A stretch of 63,216 nt of DNA, filler included, from Chrysochromulina tobinii (Eukaryota): the NCBI GenBank assembly GCA_001275005.1. It is 8 parts of 8 records of this genome, joined end to end, with 100 filler letters (N's around TTAATTAATTAA, not from the genome) between each part and the next. Parts side by side here need not be neighbours in the genome. Positions count along the whole stretch, not along the records: positions 35,615 to 48,508 come from JWZX01000206.1; 7 more parts are not named here. One strand, written 5' to 3'. This document shows, piece by piece, positions 26,979 through 56,104 of this stretch (position 1 is its first letter; the number at the start of each line of letters is the position of its first letter). The notes beneath the pieces are model-generated. The model did not search any database. It was not told the origin of the DNA and saw only the letters and a list, made by a program, of their open reading frames with translations. A program made the position numbers and the translations under genes.

Positions 26979-28895
26979 AGCAGCGTTGATCGAGAGAGCG
27001 TTGCCGCGCAGCTGCGGCGGCGAGCGTCACACCCGACAGGGCGATCAGCGGTGCACACGCGAGCAGCGAGCGGCCTGTGCCGCTCAAGCTTCCGAGAGCG
27101 AGAGCAGCAGCTTCATCGAGAGCGTTGCCGACGCAGCTGCGCACACCCGACAGGGAGATGAGCCGTGCAGACACCGAGCACCGAGCGGCCTGTGCCGCTC
27201 AAGCTTCCGAGAGCGAGAGCAGCAGCGTTGATCGAGAGCGTGGCCGACGCAGCTTCGGCGGCGAGCGTCACACCCGACAGGGCGATCAGCGGTGCAGACA
27301 CCGAGCAGCGAGCGGCCTGTGCCGCCCAAGCCTCCGAGGGTGAGAGCAGCAGCTTTGATCGGGAGCGTTGCCGATGCAGCTGCGGCGCGGCGAAGCGGCA
27401 TTGATCGAGACTGTTGCCGACGCAGCTGCGGCGGCGAAGCGGCGTTGATCGAGAGCGTTGCCGACGCAGCTGCGTCGGTGAGCTTCACATCCGACAGGGC
27501 GATCAGCGGTGCAGACACCGAGCAGCGGGGAGCGAGAGCAGCAGCGTTGATAGAGAGCGTTGCCGACGCAGCTGCGGCGGCGAGCGTCACACCCGACAGG
27601 GCGATCAGTGGTGCAGACACCGAGCAGCGAGCGGCCTGTGCCGCCCAAGCCTCCGAGGGCGAGAGCAGCAGCTTTGATCGGGAGCGTTGCCGACGCAGCT
27701 GCGGCGCGGCGAAGCGGCATTGATCGAGAGTGTTGCCGCCGCAGCTGCGGCGGCGAGCGCCACACCCGACAGGGCGATCAGCGGTGCAGACACCGAGCAG
27801 CGAGCGGCCTGTGCCGCCCATGCTTCCGAGAGAGAGAAAAGCAGCGTTGATCGAGAGCGTTGCCGACGCAGCTGCGTCGGTGAGCTTCACATCCGACAGG
27901 GCGATCAGCGGTGCAGACACCGAGCAGCGGGGAGCGAGAGCAGCAGCGTTGATAGAGAGCGTTGCCGACGGAACTGCGGCGGCGAGCGTCACACCCGACA
28001 GGGCGATCAGCGGTGCAGACACCGAGCAGCGAGCGGCCTGTGCCGCCCAAGCCTCCGAGGGCGAGAGCAGCAGCTTTGATCGGGAGCGTTGCCGACGCAG
28101 CTGCGGCGCGGCGAACCGGCATTGATCGAGAGTGTTGCCGACGCAGCTGCGGCGGCGAGCGCCACACCCGACAGGGCGATCAGCGGTGCAGACACCGAGC
28201 AGCGAGCGGCCTGTGCCGCCCAAGCCTCCGAGAGCGAGAGCAGCAGCTTTGATCGAGAGCGTTGCCGACGCAGCTGCGGCGGCGAAGCGGCGTTGATCGA
28301 GAGCGTTGCCGACGAAGCTGCGTCGGCGAGCGTCACACCCGACAGGGCGAACAGCGGTGCAGACACCGAGCGGCGAGCGGCCTGTGCCGCCCAAGGTTCC
28401 GAGAGCGAGAGAAGCAGCGTGGATCGAAAGTGTTGCCGACGCAGCTGCGGCGGCGAGCGTCACACCCGACACGGCGATCAGCGGTGCACATGCCGAGCGG
28501 CGAGAGGCCTATGCAGCTCAAGCTTCCGAGAGCGAGAGCAGCAGCGTTGATCGAGAGCTTATCGAGAGCGTTGCCGACGCATCTGCGGCGGCGAGCGTCA
28601 TACCCGACAAGGCGATCAGCGGTGCAGACGCCGAGCAGCGAGCGGCCTGTGCCGCCCAAGCTTCCGATAGCGAGAGCAGCAGCGTTGATCGAGAGCGTAG
28701 CCGATGCAGCTGCGGCGGCGAGCGTCACATCCGACTGGGCGATCAGCGGTGCAGACACCGAGCAGCGAGCGGCCTGTGCCGCCCAAGCTTCCGATAGCGA
28801 GAGCAGCAGCGTTGATCGAGAGCGTAGCCGATGCAGCTGCGCGGCAGTGAGCGTCACACCCGACAAGGCGAACAGCGGTGCACACGCCGAGCAGA
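26979..28895. repeat. ~127-bp GC-rich satellite, block 1 (with short variants and a ~402-bp higher-order unit)
   Basis: Unit begins gcagcgttgatcgagagcgttgccgacgcagctgcggcggcgagcgtcacacccgacagggcgatcagcggtgcagacaccgagc. Equivalent ORF starts recur at 27560/27962 and 27687/28089. Confidence 0.95.
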
Positions 28896-29644
28896 GGGTT
28901 ACGCCAGCCACCGAGAGTGGTGAGAGCGACTGTTGCGCCACGGCGAGGTCGCGCGGAACATCCGCGCCAACCGCGAGGATTGGGGGGGCTCGTCATTTGT
29001 CATGACGCAATCAGCAGCAGGGGCAGAATCAGCGGAGCCCTGCGCTTTTCGGACACGCGTCGACGAGAGCGCAGGCGACGACAGAAGCCGCCGGTCGGGG
29101 ACGCTCGAGTGCCGGGCAGGCACAGAATCAGTGGTAACGTCGTGAGTCGAAAGAGGCCGAGACGCCGCCTCTGTGCTACGCCCCTCTTCCGTGCCCATGT
29201 ATCCATGGCGCGACAGAGTGCGAGAAGGCGATAGAGGCAGGACGCTCGCCGAGCCCTGCGCTTCTCGGACACGCGTCGACGAGAGCGCAGGCGACGACAA
29301 AAGTCGCCGGTCAGGGACGCTCGAGTGCAGGGCGGCCCTGGACACACCATCCCCTTCGGGTTCACCACCTCCGCGGGTGCGCGTCATCCGCGAGTCACCA
29401 GGCCGAGATGATGAGCCGGCGAGCGCAGAGCTCGGGCCGGCGAGCGCGGAGCCCACGAGCCGAAGGGGAACCACGTGGGACTGCGCCGCGAGTGCACGAT
29501 CCGCGGGGATCGCAGCCCGAGGGCCGCCGCCAGCTCGCAGAGCCGACGGCACACGTGCTCGCCGTGCAGTCGACGTCGGGGATCGAGAGATAAGATCAGA
29601 GAGATGAGAGATGAGGTATCGAGAGACAAGATACCAAGAGATAA

Positions 29645-31567
29645 GGCAGCTAGTGGCCTGTGCCGCTCGAGCTTCCGAGAGCGAGAGTAGCAGCGTGGAT
29701 CGAGAGCGTTGCCGACGCAGCTGCGGCGGCGAGCGTCACACCCGACACGGCTGCAGCGGTGCACATGTCGAGCAGAGAGAGGCCTATGCAGCTCCAGCTT
29801 CCGAGAGCGAGAGCAACAGCGTTGATCGAGAGTGTTGCCGACGCAGCTGCGGCGGCGAGCGTCGCACCCGACAGGGCGATCAGCGGTGCAGACACCGAGC
29901 AGCGAGCGTCCTGTGCCGCCCAAGCCTCCGAGAGCGGGAGAAACAGCGTTGATGGAGAGCGTTGCCGACGCAGCTGCGGCGGCGAGCGTCACACCCGACT
30001 AGGCGATCAGCGGTGCAGACACCGAGCAGTAACCGAGCAGCGAGCGGCCTGTGCCGCCCAAGCTTCCGAGAACGAGAGCAGCAGCGTTGATCGAGAGCGT
30101 TGCCGACGCAGCTGCGCCGGCGAGCGTCACATCCGACCGGGCGATCAGCGGTGCAGACACCGAGCGGCGAGCGGCCTGTGCCGCTCAAGCTTCCGAGAGC
30201 GAGAGCAGCAGCGTTGATCGAGAGCGTTGCCGACGCAGCTGCGGCGGCGAGCGTCACACCCGACAGGGCGATCAGCGGTGCAGACACCGAGCGGCGAGCG
30301 GCCTATGCCGCCCAAGCCTCCGAGAGCGAGAGCAGCAGCTTTGATAGGGAGCGTTGCCGACGCAGCTGCGGCGGCGAGCGTCACACCCGAAAGGGCGATC
30401 AGCGGTGCAGACACCGAGCGGCGAGAGTCCTGTGCCGCTCAAGCTTCCGAGAGCGAGAGCAGCAGCTTTGATCAGGAGCGTTGCCGACGCACCTGCGGCG
30501 CAACGAAGCGGCATTGATCGAGAGTGTTGCCGACGCAGCTGCGGCGGCGAGCGTCACACCCAACAGGGCGATCAGCGGTGCAGACACCGAGCACCTAGCG
30601 GCCTGTGCCGCTCAAGCTTCCGAGAGCGAGAGCAACAGCGTTGATCGAGAGCGTGTCCGACGCAGCTTCGGCGGCGAGCGTCACACCCGACAGGGCGATC
30701 AGCAGTGCAGACACCGAGCGGCGAGTGGCCTGTGCCGCCCAAGCTTCCGAGAGAGAGAAAAGCAGCGTTGATCGAGAGCGTTGCCGACGCAGCTGCAGCG
30801 GCGAGCGTCACATCCGACAGGGCGATCAGCGGAGCAGACAACGAGCAGCGAGCGGCCTGTGCCGCCCAAGCTTCCGAGAGCGAGAGCAGCAGCTTGATCG
30901 AGAGCGTTGCTGACGCAGCTGCGGCGGCGAGCGTCACATCCGGCACGGCGATCAGCGATGCAGACACCGAGCGGTTAACCGAGCGGCGAGCGGCCTATGC
31001 CGCCCAAGCTTCCGGGGGCGTGAGCAGCAGCTTTGATTGGGAGCGTTGCTGACGCAGCTCTTGCGGCGAAGCGGCGTTGATCGAGAGCGTTGCGGACGCG
31101 GCGGGGGCGGCGAAGCGGCGTTGATCGAGAGTGTTGCAGACGCAGCTGCGACGGCGAGCGTCACACCCGACAGGGCGATCAGCGGTGCAGACACTGAGCA
31201 GCGAGCGGCCTGTGCCGCCCAAGTTTCCGAGAGCGAGAGAAAGAGCGTTGATGGAGAGCGTTGCCGACGCAGCCGCGGCGGCGAGCGTCACACCCAAAAG
31301 GGCGATCAGCGGCGCGCGCGCCGAGCAGCGCGCGGCCTGTGCCGCTCAAGCTTCCGAGGGCGAGAGCAGCAGCTTCGATCGAGAGCGTTGCCGATGCTGC
31401 TGTGGCGGCGAGCGTCACACCCGACAGGGCGATCAGCGGTGCAGCCGCCGAGCAGCGAGCGGCCTGTGCCGCCCAAGCTTCCGAGAGCGAGAGAGGCAGC
31501 GTTGATCGAGAGCGTTGCCAACGCAGCTGCGGAGGCGAGCGTCACACCCGACACAGTGATCAGCAGT
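29645..31567. repeat. ~127-bp satellite, block 2
   Basis: Same unit; equivalent positions at 30100, 30227 and 30354 give a 127-bp period. Confidence 0.95.
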
Positions 31568-33737: not shown

Positions 33738-35514
33738 ATGTTCACGGTCCGGCGCTGGTTGTCGGCGGCGGCGGCGGGCGGCGGCAGCGCAGCGGCGCGC
33801 GGCGGCAGCGCAGCGGCGCGTGGCGGCAGCGGAGCGGTGCGCGGCGGCAGGGTGCCGCGCATCGGTGAGCTGCGCACGGCGCGCGACGTGCTGCAGGCCC
33901 ACGAGCGCCACGCACTCCAGATGCGCCCGGTGGACGTCAGCATCTGCTGGAGCACTCTAGGCAAGCTGGTACGCCAAAGCCGCGAGGAGTGTGAGTGGAT
34001 GAAAGCAGAGCTGCGTCGGAGCAAAGCGCTCGCGCCGTTGCTCGACTCCATGCTGCAGAAGCTGCCTCTCTTCGAGCCTCGGTCGGTCGCGACCGCAGTG
34101 TACGGGCTTGCGAGTGTGATGAGCGCCACCAGATTCGCACCAGACAAGCGCGTCTGGAAGGCGCTGGCGGAAACGAGCGCGGACGTCGCAACAAAATTCA
34201 ATCCGCAGGAACTGTCGAACACGGCGAATGCGTTCGTAAAGGCAAAGCATCCGTCACCGGCGCTGCTCGATGCGATCGCGGCGGAGGCGGCGCCGCGCGT
34301 GCGCGACTTCAATGAGCAGAACCTTGCGAACACGGCGTGGGCGTACGCGACGGCGCAGCACGCGGCGCCGGCGCTGCTCGATGCGATCGCGTCGGAGGCG
34401 GGGCCGCGCGTGCGCGACTTCAAGCCGCAGGACTTTGCGAACACGGCGTGGGCGTACGCGACGGCGCAGCACGCGGCGCCGGCGCTGCTCGATGCGATCG
34501 CGGCGGAGGCGGCGCCGCGCGTGCGCGACTTCAATGCGCAAGAGCTTGCGAACACGGCGTGGGCATATGCGACGGCGCAGCACGCGGCGCCGGCGCTGCT
34601 CGATGCGATCGCGGCGGAGGCGGCGCCGCGCGTGCGCGACTTCAATGCGCAGGGGCTTGCGAACACGGCGTGGGCATATGCGACGGCGCAGCACGCGGCG
34701 CCGGCGCTGCTCGATGCGATCGCGTCGGAGGCGGCGCCGCGCGTGCGCGACTTCAATGCGCAGGACTTTGCGAACACGGCGTGGGCGTACGCGACGGCGC
34801 AGCACGCGGCGCCGGCGCTGCTCGATGCGATCGCGGCGGAGGCGGCGCCGCGCGTGCGCAACTTCAATGCGCAGAACCTTGCGAACACGGCGTGGGCGTA
34901 CGCGACGGCGCAGCACGCGGCGCCGGCGCTGCTCGATGCGATCGCGGCGGAGGCGGCACCGCGCGTGCGCGACTTCACGCCGCAGGGCCTTGCGAACACG
35001 GCGTGGGCGTACGCGACGGCGCAGCACGCGGCGCCGGCGCTGCTCGACGCGATCGCGGCGGAGGCGGCACCGCGCGTGCGCAACTTCACGCCGCAGGGCC
35101 TTGCGAACACGACGTGGGCGTACGCGACGGCGCAGCACGCGGCGCCGGCGCTGCTCGACGCGATCGCGGCGGAGGCGGCGGCGCGCGTGCGCGACTTCAA
35201 GCCGCAGGAGCTTGGGAGCACGGCGTGGGCGTACGCGGCCGCCGATCACAGCTCATGTGAGCTGCTTTTTGGCAGCTCAGCCTTTGTAGCCCATTGCGAA
35301 GCAACGCAAGCTGCCTTCCCGCCAGAGGCCTTGTGCCAGCTGCACCAGTGGCAGCTTTGGGTGGAGGAGCGCAGCGCCCCGTGGCCGCGGCTACCTTTAC
35401 CGCTCGCTGAGCGATGCCATGCGGCTTTTGTGGCCGAAGAAGGTCGACCCTCCCGCCTGCAGCGGCAGGTGGTCGCGGCGCTCAAGGCGCTCGGCCACGA
35501 GCCCCGTGAGGAGG
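33738..35514 (+). CDS. 37-aa helical-repeat (HPR/FASTK/RAP-type) organellar RNA-binding protein, 3'-truncated
   Basis: Ten 111-bp repeats from 34197 (FxxQxLANTAWAYAT...ALLDAIAAEAAPRVRD). LCQLHQWQLW and PSRLQRQV..AL typically precede a RAP domain. The N-terminus MFTVRRWLS resembles a mitochondrial presequence. Confidence 0.85.
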
Positions 35515-44196: not shown

Positions 44197-44928
44197 AAGT
44201 AGGATTCACCAGAGGCGCGCGAGACGGGGCGTGAGAACTGGCGTGAGCGCGAGACGGGGGCGAGGTGCCCACGGAGGCGCGCGCGCGTCGCTGGGAGGCC
44301 ACTGGAGAGGAGAAATTTGTAATCCCATTTCGGAACATTTCTCACGCTCGCGCCCGCGACGGGCTGACGCGCAAAATCGGCGTCCTTCCCCCGACAAAAG
44401 CGCAAGGAGCGCTGTACACGCTCACGCGCTACTGCTACGCGCTCCCTCGCTCGCCGTGCTCAACGTGTGCGCCGGTCGGGTGCGATCGCTGCACGCGCAC
44501 ACCGCACCGCCCTCGCACACGGAATCCATCGAGTCCGCTCAGGTGCTTTCCTCCATGGTGCCCTGCTGGCATTCCGGGAGCACACGTGCGTCTCTCTCAT
44601 GAATGTGATTTTTTCCGCGTGCCTTTCCGCAGTCGCGCGCCGCCGCCGACCAGTACGCCTCCCTCCTCGCCACCCCCGCGTGCTTTTCACTGCCACGTGA
44701 CTGCCCAATCCTGAGGCCCCGAGCTGTGGGCTGCCTCTCTCGAGCGGAGGGCATGCGACTCCGTTCGCGATGAGCTTCGGAGCCACACGCCGCACGCGAT
44801 CCCCCTCCGGCATGCTGTGGGCTGTTGCATGCCTACGTCGAGACCCTTCAAGCGCCCTTCGAGCTTGCAGCCGCTCGTGGTCCCATATCTCCATGCTGCC
44901 GAATACACACACGTCTCTTGTTCGCAGG

Positions 44929-46378
44929 ATGTTCGCGATGCTCATCAACTGTGTAGCGGAGAAGACGAATGCCCACAGCAACTACATGAGGTCGGTGGCG
45001 TTTTCCCCGGACGGGACCAAGATTGTGTCGGGATCAAACGACGGGACGATCAAAGTCTGGGATTTGGGTGCGCTTCTGCCCCTCAAATCACTTCTCCTTG
45101 GTCAAAACTGACGCTTGCTGGCTTGTCTGGCAGGCACAATGGTGCAGTTGAGCGAGAAGACGAACGCCCACAGCGGCAGCATCTACTCGGTCGCGTTTTC
45201 CCCGGATGGGACCAAGATTGTATCCGGATCGGACGACAAGACGATCAAAGTATGGGATTCGGGTGCGCTGCGAGCTCATAATCGCCCTCCTTGGCCAAAA
45301 CTAACGCCTGTTGGCTTGTCTGGCAGGCGTGCTGGGGCTGTTGAGCGAGAAGACGAACGCCCACAGCGACTACATCAGGTCGGTCGCCTTCTCCCCGGAC
45401 GGGACCAAGATTGTGTCTGGATCGTACGACAAGACGATCAAAGTCTGGGATTCCGGTGCGCCGAAGATATCAAAATCGCCCCTCCTTGGCCAAAACTGAC
45501 GCTTGTTGGCTTGTCTGGCAGACAAGCTGGAGCTGCTGAGCGAGAAGACGAACGCCCACAGCAACGTCGTCATGTCGGTGGCGTTTTCCCCGGACGGGAC
45601 CAAGATTGTGTCGGGATCTGACGACAAGACGATCAAAGTCTGGGAATCGGGTGCGCCGAAGCCCTCAAATCGCCTTTCCTTGGCCGAAACTGACGCTTGC
45701 TGGCTTGTCTGGCAGGCAAATTGGAGCTGCTGAGCGAGAAGACCAACGCCCACAGCGACTTGATCGCGTCGGTTGCGTTTTCCCCGGACGGGACCAAGAT
45801 CGTGTCTGGATCGGACGACAAGACGATCAAAGTCTGGGATTTTGGTGCGCCTGAGCCTCGAATTCGCCCCTCCTTGGCCAAGACTGACGCCATTTGGCTT
45901 GCCTGGCAGACAAACTGGAGCTGTTGAGCGAGAAGACGAACGCCCACAGCGACTGGGTCATGTCGGTGGCGTTTTCCCCGGACGGGTCCAAGATCGTGTC
46001 CGGATCGAAAGACAAGACGATCAAAGTCTGGGATTCGGGTGCGCCGCGAGCTCAAAATCGCCCCTTCTTGGCCAAGACTGACGCGATTTGGCTTGCCTGG
46101 CAGACAAACTGGAGCTGTTGAGCGAGAAGACAAACGCCCACAGCAGCAGCATCTCGTCGGTGACGTTTTCCCCGGACGGGACCAAGATCGTGTCGGGATC
46201 GTGGGACAAGACGATCAAAGTCTGGGATCTGGTCAATTGGTCTCGCAAAGATCATTTGATGTTCAATCATACCACACAGGGATTCGTCTTGCTGCTGCTG
46301 TGGCTGAACAAATACAGCATGAAGTTTCCTGATGATGTGCTTGATCTGCTCATTGAAGCTTGCTTGAAAAGCAGGTGA
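44929..46378 (+). CDS. Seven-repeat WD40 protein, one repeat per exon; introns 45068-45133, 45263-45326, 45456-45521, 45651-45715, 45845-45909, 46039-46103
   Basis: Seven [35 protein letters not shown] repeats. Five internal exons of exactly 129 nt. GTGCG...CTRAC...TGGCAG phase-1 introns. An acceptor at 44927 implies a possible upstream exon. Confidence 0.92.
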
Positions 46379-46870: not shown

Positions 46871-48084
46871 TCAGACTCCCTCGCTCACGTGAGCTGCATT
46901 CTGCGCGCGCATCGCGGCCGCCTCCGCTGCCTCGGCCGCCTGCGCCGCCTGCGCTACCTCAGCTTCGGCCGCCGCTGCCGCCACTGCCGCCTCCATGTCC
47001 ACCGCCTCCTTGTCGGCCGTCGCCGCCGCCGCCGCCGCTCCCTCTGCTATGATGCTAAGCGGTGGGTGCGACATGGCCTGGCCGGTATCAGCCGCCGCCG
47101 CCACATGTGCCGCCGCCCCTGAGGCCACCGTCGAGCTGTTGCTCTTTGAGTGAGGAGGCCAGCTGTCGAGCGCCGCTTCGGGCGCCTCCAACGGCTCCAT
47201 CCCATCGGCAGGCCTCAGCGTCTCCAGGGGTGGAGGTGGACTCAAGCTGTGACTCGCTCGTGCGGCCAAAGCGGCCGCATGGTGTCTCGCCGCGGTCACC
47301 ACGGCGGCATCGTCCTCCACCGCGTCAGCGGCGGCCGCCGCGCCGCCCGTCGCCGCACCACCAGACGCCTGGAGCGTGTCGAGGACCTTCTGCACCTGTG
47401 GAAAAGGGAGCAAGGCGCCGTAGTGAGCACATGCATGCTGAGGTGCACCGTCGAGTCCATCCGCACCTGTCCCCAGCGCTCCAGCTCGCGCGCATCCGCG
47501 GTGCGCTCGCGCTCCGCGAGCTGCTCGATCTGCTTTGTGAGTGTCGACTGCAGCGACGTCTGGAGAGCGAAGAGCTGTCCGAGCTGCTCGTGGTTCTCCT
47601 TCGTCGACTGTGTCACCACGTCTTTCGCGGCGGCTGCAACGGCGGCGTCCACGGCGGCTGCAACGGCGGCGTCCACGGCGGCCTTCTGCTGCTGCTGGCA
47701 GCGCTCCACGACAGCCGCGGGCACGCCGGACGCCTGCTTGAGGCCGTCCTCGACCTGCCGTGCGTGCTGTGCGAGGCTGGTCGTAATGTGCGTCTTCAAC
47801 TCGGCGATGGCGTCGTCGTCGTTGCCCGCTTGTCTGGGAAGCTGCGACTTCAAGAAGATATCGTGAAGCTGGCGCTGCGACTTGAGCACCTCCTTCAGCT
47901 CTGCGTCCACCTCGGCAAACTTGGCGGCGAGCGTCTGCACCTGCTCGGCGGTGTTGCTCGCCTGCGACTGGGCCTTGTGCAGAAACCAGAGGCCGGCGAG
48001 GACGGCGGCGCCGCTCAGGAGGCGCCATGCTAGCGGCGTCGGCGTCTGACTGTGGCGCTTTTTGCCGTCACCCGAGGGCAACAT
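46871..48084 (-). CDS. Hypothetical TM + coiled-coil protein; intron 47396-47466
   Basis: LLSGAAVLAGLWFL TM helix followed by a coiled coil. A GTGCGG...CAG intron joins ERWGQ|VQKVLD. Confidence 0.6.
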
Positions 48085-48417
48085 GCTCGGTGACCAGCGA
48101 CTATCGTCGGAGGTCGCCCGTCGTCGTTCTGGAACCCCGACGATCGCGCAAGAAAGAATGACGTTTGCAATCATCGCAAATCATTCATGGCCAGTCCCCC
48201 CCCTCTTCCTCGCTGAACGCTTAGCCTGAAGGTCCCCGTCGACGCGCTCCGTGAAAGAGTGACGTTATCGTAAAGTGTGAACTGCTACTAATACATGTAA
48301 TCGGCCGTCAACTTAGAATCTAGTACGGAACGCAAAGCGCAAGTCGAAGGGATCGTGGAATCCTTGATTTTGGAACTCTTGGGGGAACATGGCGTATTAA
48401 AACAACTTGCTTAAAAC

Positions 48418-48505
48418 CTCCATCCCATCGACAGGCCTCAGCGTCTCCAGGGGTGGAGGTGGACTCAAGCCGCTGCTCGCTCGTGCGGCCAAGGCGGCCG
48501 CATGG
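48418..48505 (-). repeat. Near-identical copy of 47195-47282; probable 3' end of a tandem paralog
   Basis: ctccatcccatcg(a/g)caggcctcagcgtctccaggggtggaggtggactcaagc... is shared with few differences. Confidence 0.8.
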
Positions 48506-52805: not shown

Positions 52806-53281
52806 GCAAGGGCGCGGCACGGGAACGATAATGAGCGTCGCTAGAGCTCTGTTCGCGGGCTTGCTCCGCCCCGGCGCGCGGGGCGGCATCAACTTTGTGT
52901 TGCCGGCACGAGAGGTTCAGTACAGGTCCTCAGGTCGGGTGGGTACCGCGTACCGACAGTATCGATGGCTGTTCTGCTGAGAACTAGGCAACTAGGGCCC
53001 TGAGATGCGAGAATACACAATCTACCTACTTAGGCAAGCAAAGTCACCCAGCCTTAAACACAACCACATGCGCGAGCGAACATATGCGCCTTTAATATAT
53101 GCGCAAGAACTACACATTTCGGTCACGGGGTTCGACGCTCAGACGCGATATCCGGTAATATGTAGTTCTCAGAACACATGAGGTTCTGCGCAAAAGCACT
53201 TGTTAGACACTTGTCTTGTCAAGACTCAGCGTGTCGCACAACGCACCGTTTCGTCTGCATCTTTCGCGAGTCGAGAGCCTC

Positions 53282-56104
53282 ATGAACGCGGGGGCGGAGC
53301 TCTCGAGCGGCGCCGACGAGATCGAGGCATCGCGTCGCGCGCTGCAGGCGGAGCTTAAGGCGGCAGGTGCACACATCGACGAGGTTGGGCGCTCCAAAGG
53401 CGCGCAGGCGCGAATGGAGAAGATTGCGGAGGATGCTGCCGCTCACAGTGCCCAGCTCTCGTTTGCGGCGTTTCAGCAGCATCAGCGTCAAGCGAAAAAG
53501 GCAGGGCGTGCCTCCGCCAAGACGCTGGCAGGCGACTCGGGGTCCGCCGGCTCGGGCTATCCGACGATCGTCCTTGACAAACTCAAGGAGAGTGAGACGG
53601 AGGCGAAGCGGCGCATAGCCGAGCTGCAGCGCCAGCTCGACCAGAAGCGCATCAAGGCGCGGATGAGCGAGGTGGAGCGGCGCAACCTCGCCGTGGGCGA
53701 GGCGATCCGCGCGCACGCGCGCAACGACCGGCTCAAGCAGATCCTCGAGGGCGCAACGCCGGCGAGCGAGGAGGAGATGCGCGTGCTGTCTGAGTCGTTC
53801 AACGAGTCCATGTGCGACTTGCTTGAGGAGTCGACGACGCCCGAGTCGTGGGTGAAGCTGTTCCGGCTGGTCGACGCCGACGGCTCCGGCCAGATCTCCT
53901 TCGACGAGCTCTGCCTCATGGCGCGCGAGGAGCTCGGCCTCCTACCGGCCGACATCGCAGACGAGCAGCTGAAGGCTATCTGGCTCTATCTCGATAGCGA
54001 CCAGAACGGGTTCATCTCGACTGGCGAGTTCGGCAACTTTATGCGCAAGGGCGCGCACGTTCTCATCAAGCACAAGGAGTCGTGGCGTGAGCGCCTCGAA
54101 GCGCGAAACCACGCCGCCGCCGACAATTTGCGCGCCAATCGCGATCGGCTGCTCGAGCGCGACATGGTGAGGAGGCTGGAGGGCGCGATCGCGGCGCCCG
54201 AGGGCGACGTGGCGCTGCTGGCGCGGCTGTGCCAGCAGCGGATGAGCACGGTCAACGAGGAGGACGAGGCGCCCTCGCGCTCGTGGTACAACCTCTTCAA
54301 GCGCGTCGATGAGGACGATTCCGGTCGCGTCACCTTTGCCGAATTCCGCAGGCTCGTGCGGGCGGAGCTCGGCGTGCCGACAGCGGACATGGAGGAGGTG
54401 AAGCTGAAGGGCGTGTGGCTCGCGCTCGACAGCGACCAGAATGGGTTCATTACGGCGGCCGAGTTTGCAGCCTTCATGCGCAAGGCGGAGCCGCAGGCTA
54501 AGGACCAGCGGCTTCGCAGCTTGCTCGCACGTCGGCGCAAGGCGGAAGCGGGCAAGCAGCACGACGAGCAGATCAAGCTGGCGGCTAAGGAGATGATCCG
54601 GCAGGCGGTCGAGCGCAAGCGCGAGAACGTGCGCCAGGCGCGCGAGGAGAACCAGCTCAGGCGCAAGGAGGATGCGGCCAAGCGCGAGGCAGCCAGCAAG
54701 GAGGCAGCCGAGTTGATACGAGCCAACTCGCGGATGGACTTTTTGACGACCGAGCTGGTGGGGGTGCCGAGCGCGAGTGAGGCTGAGGTGCGCGAGCTCT
54801 CGGAGGCATGCAACGCACGCATGCTCGAGCTCGTCGGGTACGACGAGAAGAAGGCCGCCTGGTTCAAATTTTACCGGCGCGTCGACTCCGATGACAGCGG
54901 CCGCATCGACTTTAAAGAGTTTCGTCACATGCTTCGGGTCGAGCTGCAGCTGAGTGCGAAGGCCATGGACGATTACCGGCTGAAGACGGCGTGGGTCGCG
55001 CTCGACGTCGACAGCTCGGGCTACATCTCCGCGGGCGAGTTTGGCTCCTTCATGCGCCGTGGCGAGCGCGTCCTCAACGAGGCCAAGGAGGAGCGCCCGT
55101 GGAAGGAGCGCCGTCTCGAGCGCGCCAAGGCGGCCCACGCGGCGCGGCTGGCGGAGCGCGACGCTCTCTTCCACAGAGACATCGCCAAGCAGCTTGAGGG
55201 GGCGCCGCCCGCGTCCGACGAAGAAGTGCGACGTTTGTCCGAGGCCTTCAACGCGAGGCTGCAACTGCTCGAGGCTGAGAACGAGCTTCAGCGCCAAGCC
55301 ACCAGCGGCGCCAGGAGCGACCCTGGGGGCAGCGGCGCCCTCTCCGACGGGCTGGACGCCGACGGGCTGCCGCCCATGCCCGCCGCCGCGCGCTCGTGCG
55401 GCTGGTACACGCTCTTCAAGCACGTCGATGAGAATGAGTCGGGCACGATCTCGTACCGCGAGCTCAAGGTGATCGTGCGCGACGAGCTGCAGCTGACGCC
55501 CAAGGACGTGCCCGAGCACGAACTCCAGGCAGTGTACCTCGCCCTCGATAAGGATAAGTCCGGCTTCATCACGGCCGGCGAGTTTGGGCAGTTCATGCGG
55601 CTGGGCGCGCCCGACCGGGTGCAGGGCTACAAGAAGGGCGCGATGCTCGAGCGCAGGCGTGCGATCGCACTGCGCGAGCGCGCCATCTTCGAAATGGGGG
55701 CAGCGCAGGTGCATCGGCGCCATGCCGAGCAGCTCGCGCGCCAGAAGCAGGAGTACGACCGGCGCGTTCAGGTCCTCGAGAGGGAGCTGCAGGAGATGGA
55801 GGGAGCTGGAGACACCGGTGGCGGCGCGAGCGGCTCACATGACCCGGCGCGTGTGAGCGTCGAGCCGGTTCCGTCAGTTCCGTCAGGCGAGGAGCTTAGC
55901 CGGCAGCGCAGGCTCACGATGGCCAAGCTGCGAGGCGCGCCGCCGCCGCCCAGCAGCCCCGCGTCCGGCTTGCTCTCAGCCTATGCCTCCAAGAGCACGC
56001 CGATCCTGCCCGCCTCGCAGCGCAATCGAACGGCCAGAGCTGGCCGTGACCGTGGCGCGGCCTCGGAGGGCAAACTCAAGCTGCCAGCCATCCAGTCCCG
56101 ATAG
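53282..56104 (+). CDS. Multi-EF-hand calcium-binding protein (four EF-hand pairs)
   Basis: DADGSGQISFDE/DSDQNGFISTGE, DEDDSGRVTFAE/DSDQNGFITAAE, DSDDSGRIDFKE/DVDSSGYISAGE and DENESGTISYRE/DKDKSGFITAGE. Confidence 0.9.
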   Translation: MNAGAELSSGADEIEASRRALQAELKAAGAHIDEVGRSKGAQARMEKIAEDAAAHSAQLSFAAFQQHQRQAKKAGRASAKTLAGDSGSAGSGYPTIVLDKLKESETEAKRRIAELQRQLDQKRIKARMSEVERRNLAVGEAIRAHARNDRLKQILEGATPASEEEMRVLSESFNESMCDLLEESTTPESWVKLFRLVDADGSGQISFDELCLMAREELGLLPADIADEQLKAIWLYLDSDQNGFISTGEFGNFMRKGAHVLIKHKESWRERLEARNHAAADNLRANRDRLLERDMVRRLEGAIAAPEGDVALLARLCQQRMSTVNEEDEAPSRSWYNLFKRVDEDDSGRVTFAEFRRLVRAELGVPTADMEEVKLKGVWLALDSDQNGFITAAEFAAFMRKAEPQAKDQRLRSLLARRRKAEAGKQHDEQIKLAAKEMIRQAVERKRENVRQAREENQLRRKEDAAKREAASKEAAELIRANSRMDFLTTELVGVPSASEAEVRELSEACNARMLELVGYDEKKAAWFKFYRRVDSDDSGRIDFKEFRHMLRVELQLSAKAMDDYRLKTAWVALDVDSSGYISAGEFGSFMRRGERVLNEAKEERPWKERRLERAKAAHAARLAERDALFHRDIAKQLEGAPPASDEEVRRLSEAFNARLQLLEAENELQRQATSGARSDPGGSGALSDGLDADGLPPMPAAARSCGWYTLFKHVDENESGTISYRELKVIVRDELQLTPKDVPEHELQAVYLALDKDKSGFITAGEFGQFMRLGAPDRVQGYKKGAMLERRRAIALRERAIFEMGAAQVHRRHAEQLARQKQEYDRRVQVLERELQEMEGAGDTGGGASGSHDPARVSVEPVPSVPSGEELSRQRRLTMAKLRGAPPPPSSPASGLLSAYASKSTPILPASQRNRTARAGRDRGAASEGKLKLPAIQSR

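Follow-up and report, generated by a model that had tools for sequence, protein, structure and literature searches.

A haptophyte WD40 gene with one repeat per exon, a member of a multi-locus family with five hypervariable codons per repeat: a candidate module for non-self sensing

A gene of the haptophyte Chrysochromulina tobinii, located on the plus strand at positions 44929 to 46378 of the window (the whole stretch of 63,216 nucleotides that was analysed, filler included), raises the question of why a protein should consist of seven WD40 repeats, each encoded by an exon of its own, in which a near-invariant scaffold carries a few residues that differ from repeat to repeat. The original prediction took this gene for an exon-shuffled recognition or immune receptor.

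The seven-exon gene and its product

The seven exons are separated by six introns of 66, 64, 66, 65, 65 and 65 nt (donors at 45068, 45263, 45456, 45651, 45845 and 46039), all six with GT..AG ends and all six in phase 1, and each of the five internal exons is exactly 129 nt long. This layout, which had been predicted, is confirmed by the splice parse, which yields an open frame of 1059 nt (352 aa), with all three unspliced plus-strand frames broken. Coding exon 1 (44928-45067), with the ATG at 44929, encodes a family-fixed N-terminal strand and repeat 1, and the same start is found in the paralogs of the class to which this gene belongs (class A, below) and in P0097, a homolog from Chrysochromulina parva. 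It is followed by intron 1 (45068-45133), exon 2 (45134-45262), in which the hypervariable codons discussed below begin at 45175, 45178, 45184, 45232 and 45238, intron 2 (45263-45326), exon 3 (45327-45455), intron 3 (45456-45521), exon 4 (45522-45650), intron 4 (45651-45715), exon 5 (45716-45844), intron 5 (45845-45909), exon 6 (45910-46038), intron 6 (46039-46103) and exon 7 (46104-46378), which contains repeat 7, a C-terminal tail and the stop codon; exons 3 and 7 are placed by the domain search as well as by the splice parse. The Pfam WD40 profile PF00400 matches single exons with E values of 7e-14 and 1e-12, and 7 occurrences of the exon motif are seen across the window, where 0.01 would be expected. 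TRF finds in the array a period of 194 (6.5 copies, 85% matches), in agreement with the predicted exon-plus-intron unit of about 194 bp. The introns had been described as near-identical, an overstatement given that they are 73-89% identical within the gene, compared to 83-90% for the exons. Since two contigs from two other assemblies, L039 (3651 nt) and L103 (1592 nt), reproduce the locus at 100% identity, the array is not an assembly artefact.

In the WD40 fold, one sequence repeat comprises strand d of one blade and strands a-c of the next. Thus, the description of the gene as having an exon per blade is valid insofar as each exon encodes one WD repeat, but such an exon does not correspond to one structural blade. 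The model of P0097, which matches at 66% identity over 98% coverage and, among the matches listed, is the only one that covers the last exon and the tail, is a seven-bladed propeller with three C-terminal helices (pLDDT 86.9), and the Foldseek matches agree with a WD40 propeller. Judging from this model, the product of the window gene is predicted to be a WD40 protein forming a closed seven-bladed propeller.

The tail (46238-46375), which the original prediction omitted, consists of 46 aa on the last exon and is predicted to form three helices. It is conserved, with pN of 0.061 versus pS of 0.217 among 23 tails, always stands C-terminal to the propeller and, among the examined loci, is found in the stand-alone class only, the NACHT-WD genes being devoid of it. 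The tail is present also in more distant proteins, with 17 matches in a representative library, 15 of them with the same tail and 2 being unrelated repeat proteins. A search with the tail region retrieved P0097 itself only; no match was detected in Pfam, NCBIfam, Foldseek or the Atlas, the only match among PDB sequences was Im7 at E 0.07, and the VIA comparison of the fold gave no relevant match among the 50 matches listed (best Z 5.4, unrelated). A helical module of about 50 residues is hard to place.

The N-terminus is short, the frame beginning 10 residues ahead of repeat 1. By homology to the first 115 nt of the spliced paralog contig L067, the 5' UTR of this copy would comprise exon 1 (44417-44542, approximate start), a 90-nt GT-AG intron (44543-44632) that is spliced in the paralog (L063/L067) and, as placed from the paralog transcript, a 20-nt exon 2 (44633-44652) and a 275-nt GT-AG intron (44653-44927). 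Because these UTR introns are mapped and the inferred 5' UTR contains no upstream ATG, the gene appears to start 10 residues before repeat 1 rather than to be part of a longer receptor. The N-terminal sequence shows no evident signal peptide or membrane anchor, the domain search detected no NACHT domain in the window, and the frame of the gene includes no N-terminal HET or other effector domain.

The evidence on splicing and exon skipping comes from three transcript-like contigs, L067, L121 and L088. Of these, L067 and L121 match the genomic paralog L063 at 99-100%, the former lacking its repeat introns 1, 3 and 4 and the latter its introns 3 to 6, with two 5' UTR introns spliced out as well, which shows for a paralog the splicing that had been predicted for these exons. 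In L063, the AG acceptor of intron 2 is lost and, according to L067 and L121, the 60 nt of this intron stay in the message without a frame break and encode an extra loop of 20 residues. Another protein of C. parva, the source of the closest named relatives, is 80% identical to this spliced paralog. Exon skipping, also part of the original prediction, found no support: the sole skip-like contig, L088, switches genes inside a stretch of 48 shared nt and is best read as an assembly chimera, so both exon skipping and trans-splicing were rejected as explanations for it.

Several other features of the window deserve mention in their own right: a complex 4.5-kb array of 44-, 127- and 173-bp units (27024-31564, TRF), a 111-bp (37-aa) coding repeat in 9.4 copies with DUF1601/FAST_1 matches (34197-35237), and a 965-aa open frame with many EF-hand repeats (53207-56104). 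An 88-bp segment is present in two copies (47195-47282 and 48418-48505, spanning 47195-48505), and L039 repeats 47361-48143; the local duplication may differ between assemblies.

A multi-locus family with two architectures

The gene belongs to a multi-locus family, as had been surmised. A scan of 36 of the 64 parts of a metagenome collection, the counts from which are a lower bound, found 129 loci, with 643 unit matches in 124 of 131 sequences and a spacing mode of 194-195 nt. In the long-contig assemblies, these loci collapse to about 33 gene clusters, which presumably belong to the same genotype as the window, and many clusters recur in 2-4 assemblies. The family size is a lower bound also for the host genome because the counts were made in other assemblies.

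Two classes of genes stand out. Class A, which includes the window gene, consists of stand-alone propellers with a fixed N-terminus, mostly seven repeats and the conserved helical tail; among the complete genes, 15 of 24 parse as intact 7-exon frames, and the remaining 9 are not clean 7-exon frames, in part due to automatic boundary calls, with some that look broken or shortened. In class B, NPHP3_N/NACHT and APAF1_C domains precede 4-11 of the WD exon units, an NLR-like architecture; upstream of the WD exons in L017, L021 and L023, these domains are recognized with E values from 1e-27 to 4e-29. The term receptor is not supported for the window gene alone, which has neither NACHT nor a known signalling domain. 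Within 216 kb around 23 stand-alone loci, no NACHT genes were found beside the class A genes.

Inside the NACHT module of class B, behind the P-loop core, there is a RelA/SpoT-like segment (Pfam E 0.044, below the cut-off; Tas1 in PDB, E 1e-5). This Tas1-like segment was observed at L017:1571-2080 and also in L008, L021, L023, L047, L048 and L072; from its sequence, it could possibly be a built-in effector that produces a nucleotide signal or depletes nucleotides.

The same exon units occur in other contexts as well. One gene (L007:2372-4774 and downstream) combines a U-box, a dynamin GTPase and armadillo repeats, with seven WD exon units built in and an armadillo-like end. A second, unrelated NACHT-type protein uses the same WD exons (L061:1859-5743); its N-terminal domain may resemble fungal HET/TIR-like domains, and the HET-like assignment was dropped as neither Pfam nor NCBIfam nor any usable Atlas match backed it. 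Inverted and orphan WD units are located just downstream of the NACHT-WD gene of L017 (7500-7900) and are absent from the same-flank copy L021; possibly, these are a reservoir of spare units or the scar of a rearrangement. L015, L081 and L006 contain arrays of a more remote repeat type, intron-free or spliced and with an NLR-type C-terminus, each either a transcript or an intron-less gene. Two pattern matches on viral contigs, neither with an exon-profile match, were treated as chance. Around the stand-alone genes, inspection by eye revealed no fixed termini of mobile elements, and homology is lost soon past the stop codon and close to the start of the transcript.

Selection at five codons and a common pool of repeat units

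The variable residues were examined in 271 non-redundant exons. Removed beforehand were 80 of 532 acceptor-bearing units, on account of an indel, an edge, a stop or the lack of a core residue, and 7 loci that were transcript-like or divergent. Exon positions 14, 15, 17, 33 and 35 each accommodate 14-19 different residues, with entropies of 3.1, 3.8, 3.4, 3.5 and 2.2 bits, respectively, and 243 distinct five-site combinations occur in the 271 exons. Position 16 is I or V in 268 of the 271 exons, position 34 is Asp, and the other exposed positions stay conserved. The residues originally listed for the seven repeats of the window gene, namely, NYMR, GSIY, DYIR, NVVM, DLIA, DWVM and SSIS after HS, and N, D, Y, D, D, K and W in GSxD, are as reported, and these sites are variable indeed, except for the third one of the quartet, which is held to I/V; a fifth variable site, not included in that list, follows GSxD.

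The variation at the five codons bears the mark of selection. Over all pairs, with recombination ignored in the pN/pS estimates, pN/pS is 0.58/0.34 at these codons versus 0.058/0.265 in the scaffold. In 51 disjoint close pairs chosen without the use of the five codons, pN is 0.32 versus pS of 0.18 (Fisher p 0.0014), and the held-out scaffold of the same pairs shows pS of 0.06-0.15 and pN of 0.011, so that pN at the five codons is 2-5 times the held-out synonymous divergence. The held-out scaffold codons served as the yardstick because the introns are more conserved than synonymous sites (pi 0.14 against 0.27) and were rejected as a neutral reference. None of the 233 distinct 129-nt exons contains a stop, which argues against blind hypermutation, and of 260 internal exons, 256 have a length divisible by 3.

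Reportedly, the top-face hotspots of WD40 propellers are the subject of a published study. Each of the pairs 15/17 and 33/35 brackets a conserved residue, and these two residues are 18 apart; the same holds for codons 7/9 and 25/27 of the Podospora HNWD repeats, which are placed on the propeller top by homology modelling (PMC1805685). The five sites match positions 11, 12, 14, 30 and 32 of PMC12222747, with the register derived from spacing; the counterpart of HNWD position 10 is conserved in the haptophyte exons. Thus, the predicted selection at HNWD-equivalent sites is supported: five codons are under selection to vary, pN exceeding pS among family pairs. The five residues are predicted to form the binding face at the top of the propeller, the face being taken from the HNWD homology model.

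In the analysis of 161 repeat units, where L083 and L104 were assigned to class A by default for distances and the tree, units of one gene are separated by a scaffold distance of 0.106, those of different genes by 0.110 and those of classes A and B by 0.110, with no dependence on position in the gene (0.1066 for the same position, 0.1070 for different ones); there is a mild excess of nearest neighbours from the same gene (12 of 161 versus 4.7 expected). On the exon tree, which is poorly resolved, with 20 of 155 branches starred, the class label needs 45 changes compared to 46.9 after shuffling, and the starred branches require no fewer than 9. Different genes are joined by seven exact tracts of 192-232 nt (about 190-232 nt), which derive from about two events, and one exact unit is common to the NLR-like L008 (two assemblies) and the stand-alone L042 (four), L078 (two) and L065. 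Hence the repeat units of the stand-alone and NACHT-WD genes comprise one intermixed pool, and recent exact copies have moved between genes. The original prediction that units are swapped between loci is borne out by the tree, the distances and the tracts, and the inclusion of the NACHT-WD genes in the pool goes beyond it.

With regard to the window gene itself, the tree groups exon 2, in a starred clade, with exons from two NACHT-WD genes and with class A exons at other positions. For exons 2-7, the nearest exon elsewhere shows 5-10 differences per 120 and the nearest in the same gene 12-19, although there are many more candidates elsewhere. Because no exact tract of 70 nt or longer connects the window gene with another gene, and the copies of its locus that were found (L039, L103) are identical, recent exchange and polymorphism pertain to the family rather than to the window copy. 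Repeat number and order appear to differ, as predicted, between same-flank copies: L031 and L062 differ by one missing repeat, L017 and L021 have 10 versus 4 repeats, L035 and L056 differ in all seven repeats (86-92% on the diagonal), and L003 and L049 by point changes only. Most of these allele pairs include a short-read environmental contig, and short-read assemblies are known to misbuild the Podospora HNWD arrays (PMC12222747).

The exact tracts begin just behind the last variable codon, cross the intron and stop near the end of the next exon. These boundaries fit homologous exchange of an intron with its following exon, with crossovers in the conserved stretch of exon end and donor. Symmetric introns had been credited with the preservation of the reading frame, but the tracts begin and end near the exon end and donor, so in-register homologous recombination would keep the frame with or without introns.

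Possible function and relation to known systems

The window gene probably encodes a variable module for sensing non-self, one of a multi-locus family that is part of the same system as the haptophyte NLR-like ATPases; the immune function is what we infer from the evolution of the family. Under this scheme, 194-bp units would be exchanged between loci, the intron travelling with the next exon, by in-register homologous recombination, that is, gene conversion or unequal crossing-over, probably with crossovers near the conserved exon end and donor. Point changes would be favoured, as the family data show, at codons 14, 15, 17, 33 and 35, with the scaffold, the intervening I/V and the tail conserved, so that each gene could present a new seven-site surface for catching fast-evolving foreign proteins, be it from a virus, a bacterium, a parasite or a non-kin cell. 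Most tentatively, the tail of the stand-alone class, which has no NACHT domain, might act as an adaptor to a constant host partner, passing a signal on or disposing of the ligand, and this class might also supply the NLR-like genes with repeat variants, serving as their reservoir.

A bolder version of this proposal is possible, if tentative: a unicellular alga would maintain a genome-wide combinatorial library of WD40 exons feeding two immune arms, namely, NLR-like sensors with a RelA/SpoT-like nucleotide-signal enzyme and NACHT-free propellers, the tail of which would hand captured foreign proteins, for example, those of giant viruses, to a host complex for degradation or signalling, and the movement of units would be sufficiently fast to shift specificity within populations.

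Among the alternatives, the one that fares best, although we consider it rather doubtful, is that the stand-alone proteins are substrate receptors of ubiquitin ligases in which the propeller picks the target and the tail docks a cullin adaptor in the manner of an F-box, SOCS/VHL-box or PRANC-like module, as in fast-evolving F-box families. The three-helix tail, under purifying selection, C-terminal to the propeller and absent in the NACHT-WD genes, is compatible with such a role, and so is the weak U-box match (E 3e-4) in the family member L007; the last helix of the tail opens with a hydrophobic-Pro-x-x-hydrophobic pattern that, presumably, recalls helix 1 of the F-box and cullin boxes. However, no F-box, SOCS or PRANC match was obtained in Pfam (to E 10), PDB sequences, Foldseek, the Atlas or the 50 VIA matches listed, and the cysteine pattern of the BC-box is not evident in the tail alignment.

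It is unlikely that the partner comes from the alga's own kind or from among its prey, with a role in allorecognition, mate choice or prey sensing instead of pathogen defence. The evolutionary signature cannot tell the partner, and the best-matched system, het-d/het-e of Podospora, was discovered through allorecognition (PMC1805685). However, there is no evident signal peptide or membrane anchor, and therefore a cytosolic role is likelier, and the pool shared with the NACHT proteins points to intracellular sensing. Furthermore, vegetative fusion is not known in haptophytes, which counts against this alternative.

A neutral origin, in which an ordinary WD40 scaffold expanded in tandem and was homogenised, with surface residues that vary only for want of constraint, is disfavoured and appears quite improbable. 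Tandem units do recombine by themselves, surface loops tolerate change, and the broken or shortened appearance of some of the 9 copies among 24 that are not clean frames, partly owing to automatic boundaries, would be expected under neutrality; yet relaxation predicts pN close to pS, as opposed to the excess of pN at the five codons, and both the conservation of the other exposed positions and the lack of stops speak against it.

The look-alike introns could, in principle, be copies of an active introner, the exon-per-repeat layout being a by-product of insertion, and the match between the intron start and the next-exon start, at 6 of 15 positions in the mode and up to 11 of 15, is a faint trace of target duplication. 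Against this scenario, which we regard as very improbable, in 642 kb the intron body turns up 538 times, always next to a WD exon (the 2 exceptions belong to a single site in L023, adjacent to a degenerate WD exon), all 6 of its matches in the window fall in the array, and the intron always resides at the same codon position. Conceivably, one old intron insertion spread by repeat homogenisation, which would leave the selection unexplained. Finally, assembly error as the source of the array, or of its diversity, is exceedingly improbable, notwithstanding the misbuilt Podospora arrays (PMC12222747) and the likely chimera L088, given that the window gene is exact in two other assemblies, that clusters recur in 2-4 assemblies and transcripts match a genomic paralog, and that chimeras could fake blade order but not an amino-acid excess at specific codons.

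The family bears on the recognition of viruses and other non-self by unicellular algae, which is largely an open question, by supplying haptophyte candidates that can be named and counted and that carry a strong arms-race signature. It extends the HNWD codon pattern to a lineage far from fungi and bacteria, in combination with an exon-per-repeat layout, and the pool common to NLR-like proteins and NACHT-free propellers makes a reservoir, decoy or adaptor role testable. In addition, a near-invariant scaffold with five variable sites per repeat amounts to a natural binder library. Searches of the open-access literature found no description of this exon-per-repeat WD40 family of haptophytes; subscription papers and supplements on haptophyte genomes could list such genes.

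Several known systems invite comparison. The WD40 substrate receptors of cullin-RING ligases (WSB1/2, FBXW, DCAF) join a seven-blade propeller with a short helical module, as the window gene does, and their repeats are old and divergent; the tail of the window gene gave no match to any such box in Pfam, PDB sequences, Foldseek or the VIA matches listed. The best match is with the NACHT-WD40 NLRs of Podospora anserina (HNWD/NWD: het-d, het-e, het-r), in which WD40 repeats of high identity (>80%) are likewise pooled across loci, the selected codons are in the same register, flanking the strand-a hydrophobe and the b-c Asp, and repeat number varies, as it appears to among the same-flank haptophyte copies; NACHT-WD members exist in the haptophyte family too. 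Unlike in HNWD, each haptophyte repeat occupies a separate exon accompanied by a homologous intron, the majority of members are stand-alone seven-repeat propellers with a novel tail and without HET or NACHT, position 10 is conserved, and the NACHT members carry a RelA/SpoT-like insert in place of an N-terminal HET domain, in a unicellular haptophyte host. Among fungal NLRs more broadly, about 22% of the WD domains are internally conserved, and RELA_SPOT-NACHT-WD40 architectures are listed (PMC4986451); both the internally conserved repeats and the junction of RelA/SpoT with NACHT-WD have fungal parallels. The haptophyte segment, however, follows the P-loop core within the NACHT module, and the available text of that survey makes no mention of an exon-per-repeat layout.

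Such a layout has been described for the LRR and TPR genes of brown algae, the ROCO-LRR and NB-ARC-TPR genes of Ectocarpus and Saccharina (PMC3341825, PMC11378527), which likewise devote an exon to each repeat, keep to a single intron phase and show diversifying selection and shuffling between paralogs, also in an algal host. LRR or TPR repeats are joined there to ROC-COR or NB-ARC, in contrast to the stand-alone WD40 gene, and the introns are in phase 2 rather than phase 1; those of the window gene are short (64-66 nt), mutually homologous and part of a strict 194-bp unit, with no spare exons inside them, and its repeats make a closed propeller with a preferred count of seven. A member of neither group, having no NACHT, HET, LRR or TPR domain, the window gene would work like HNWD and is laid out like the genes of brown algae, ROCO as well as NB-ARC-TPR.
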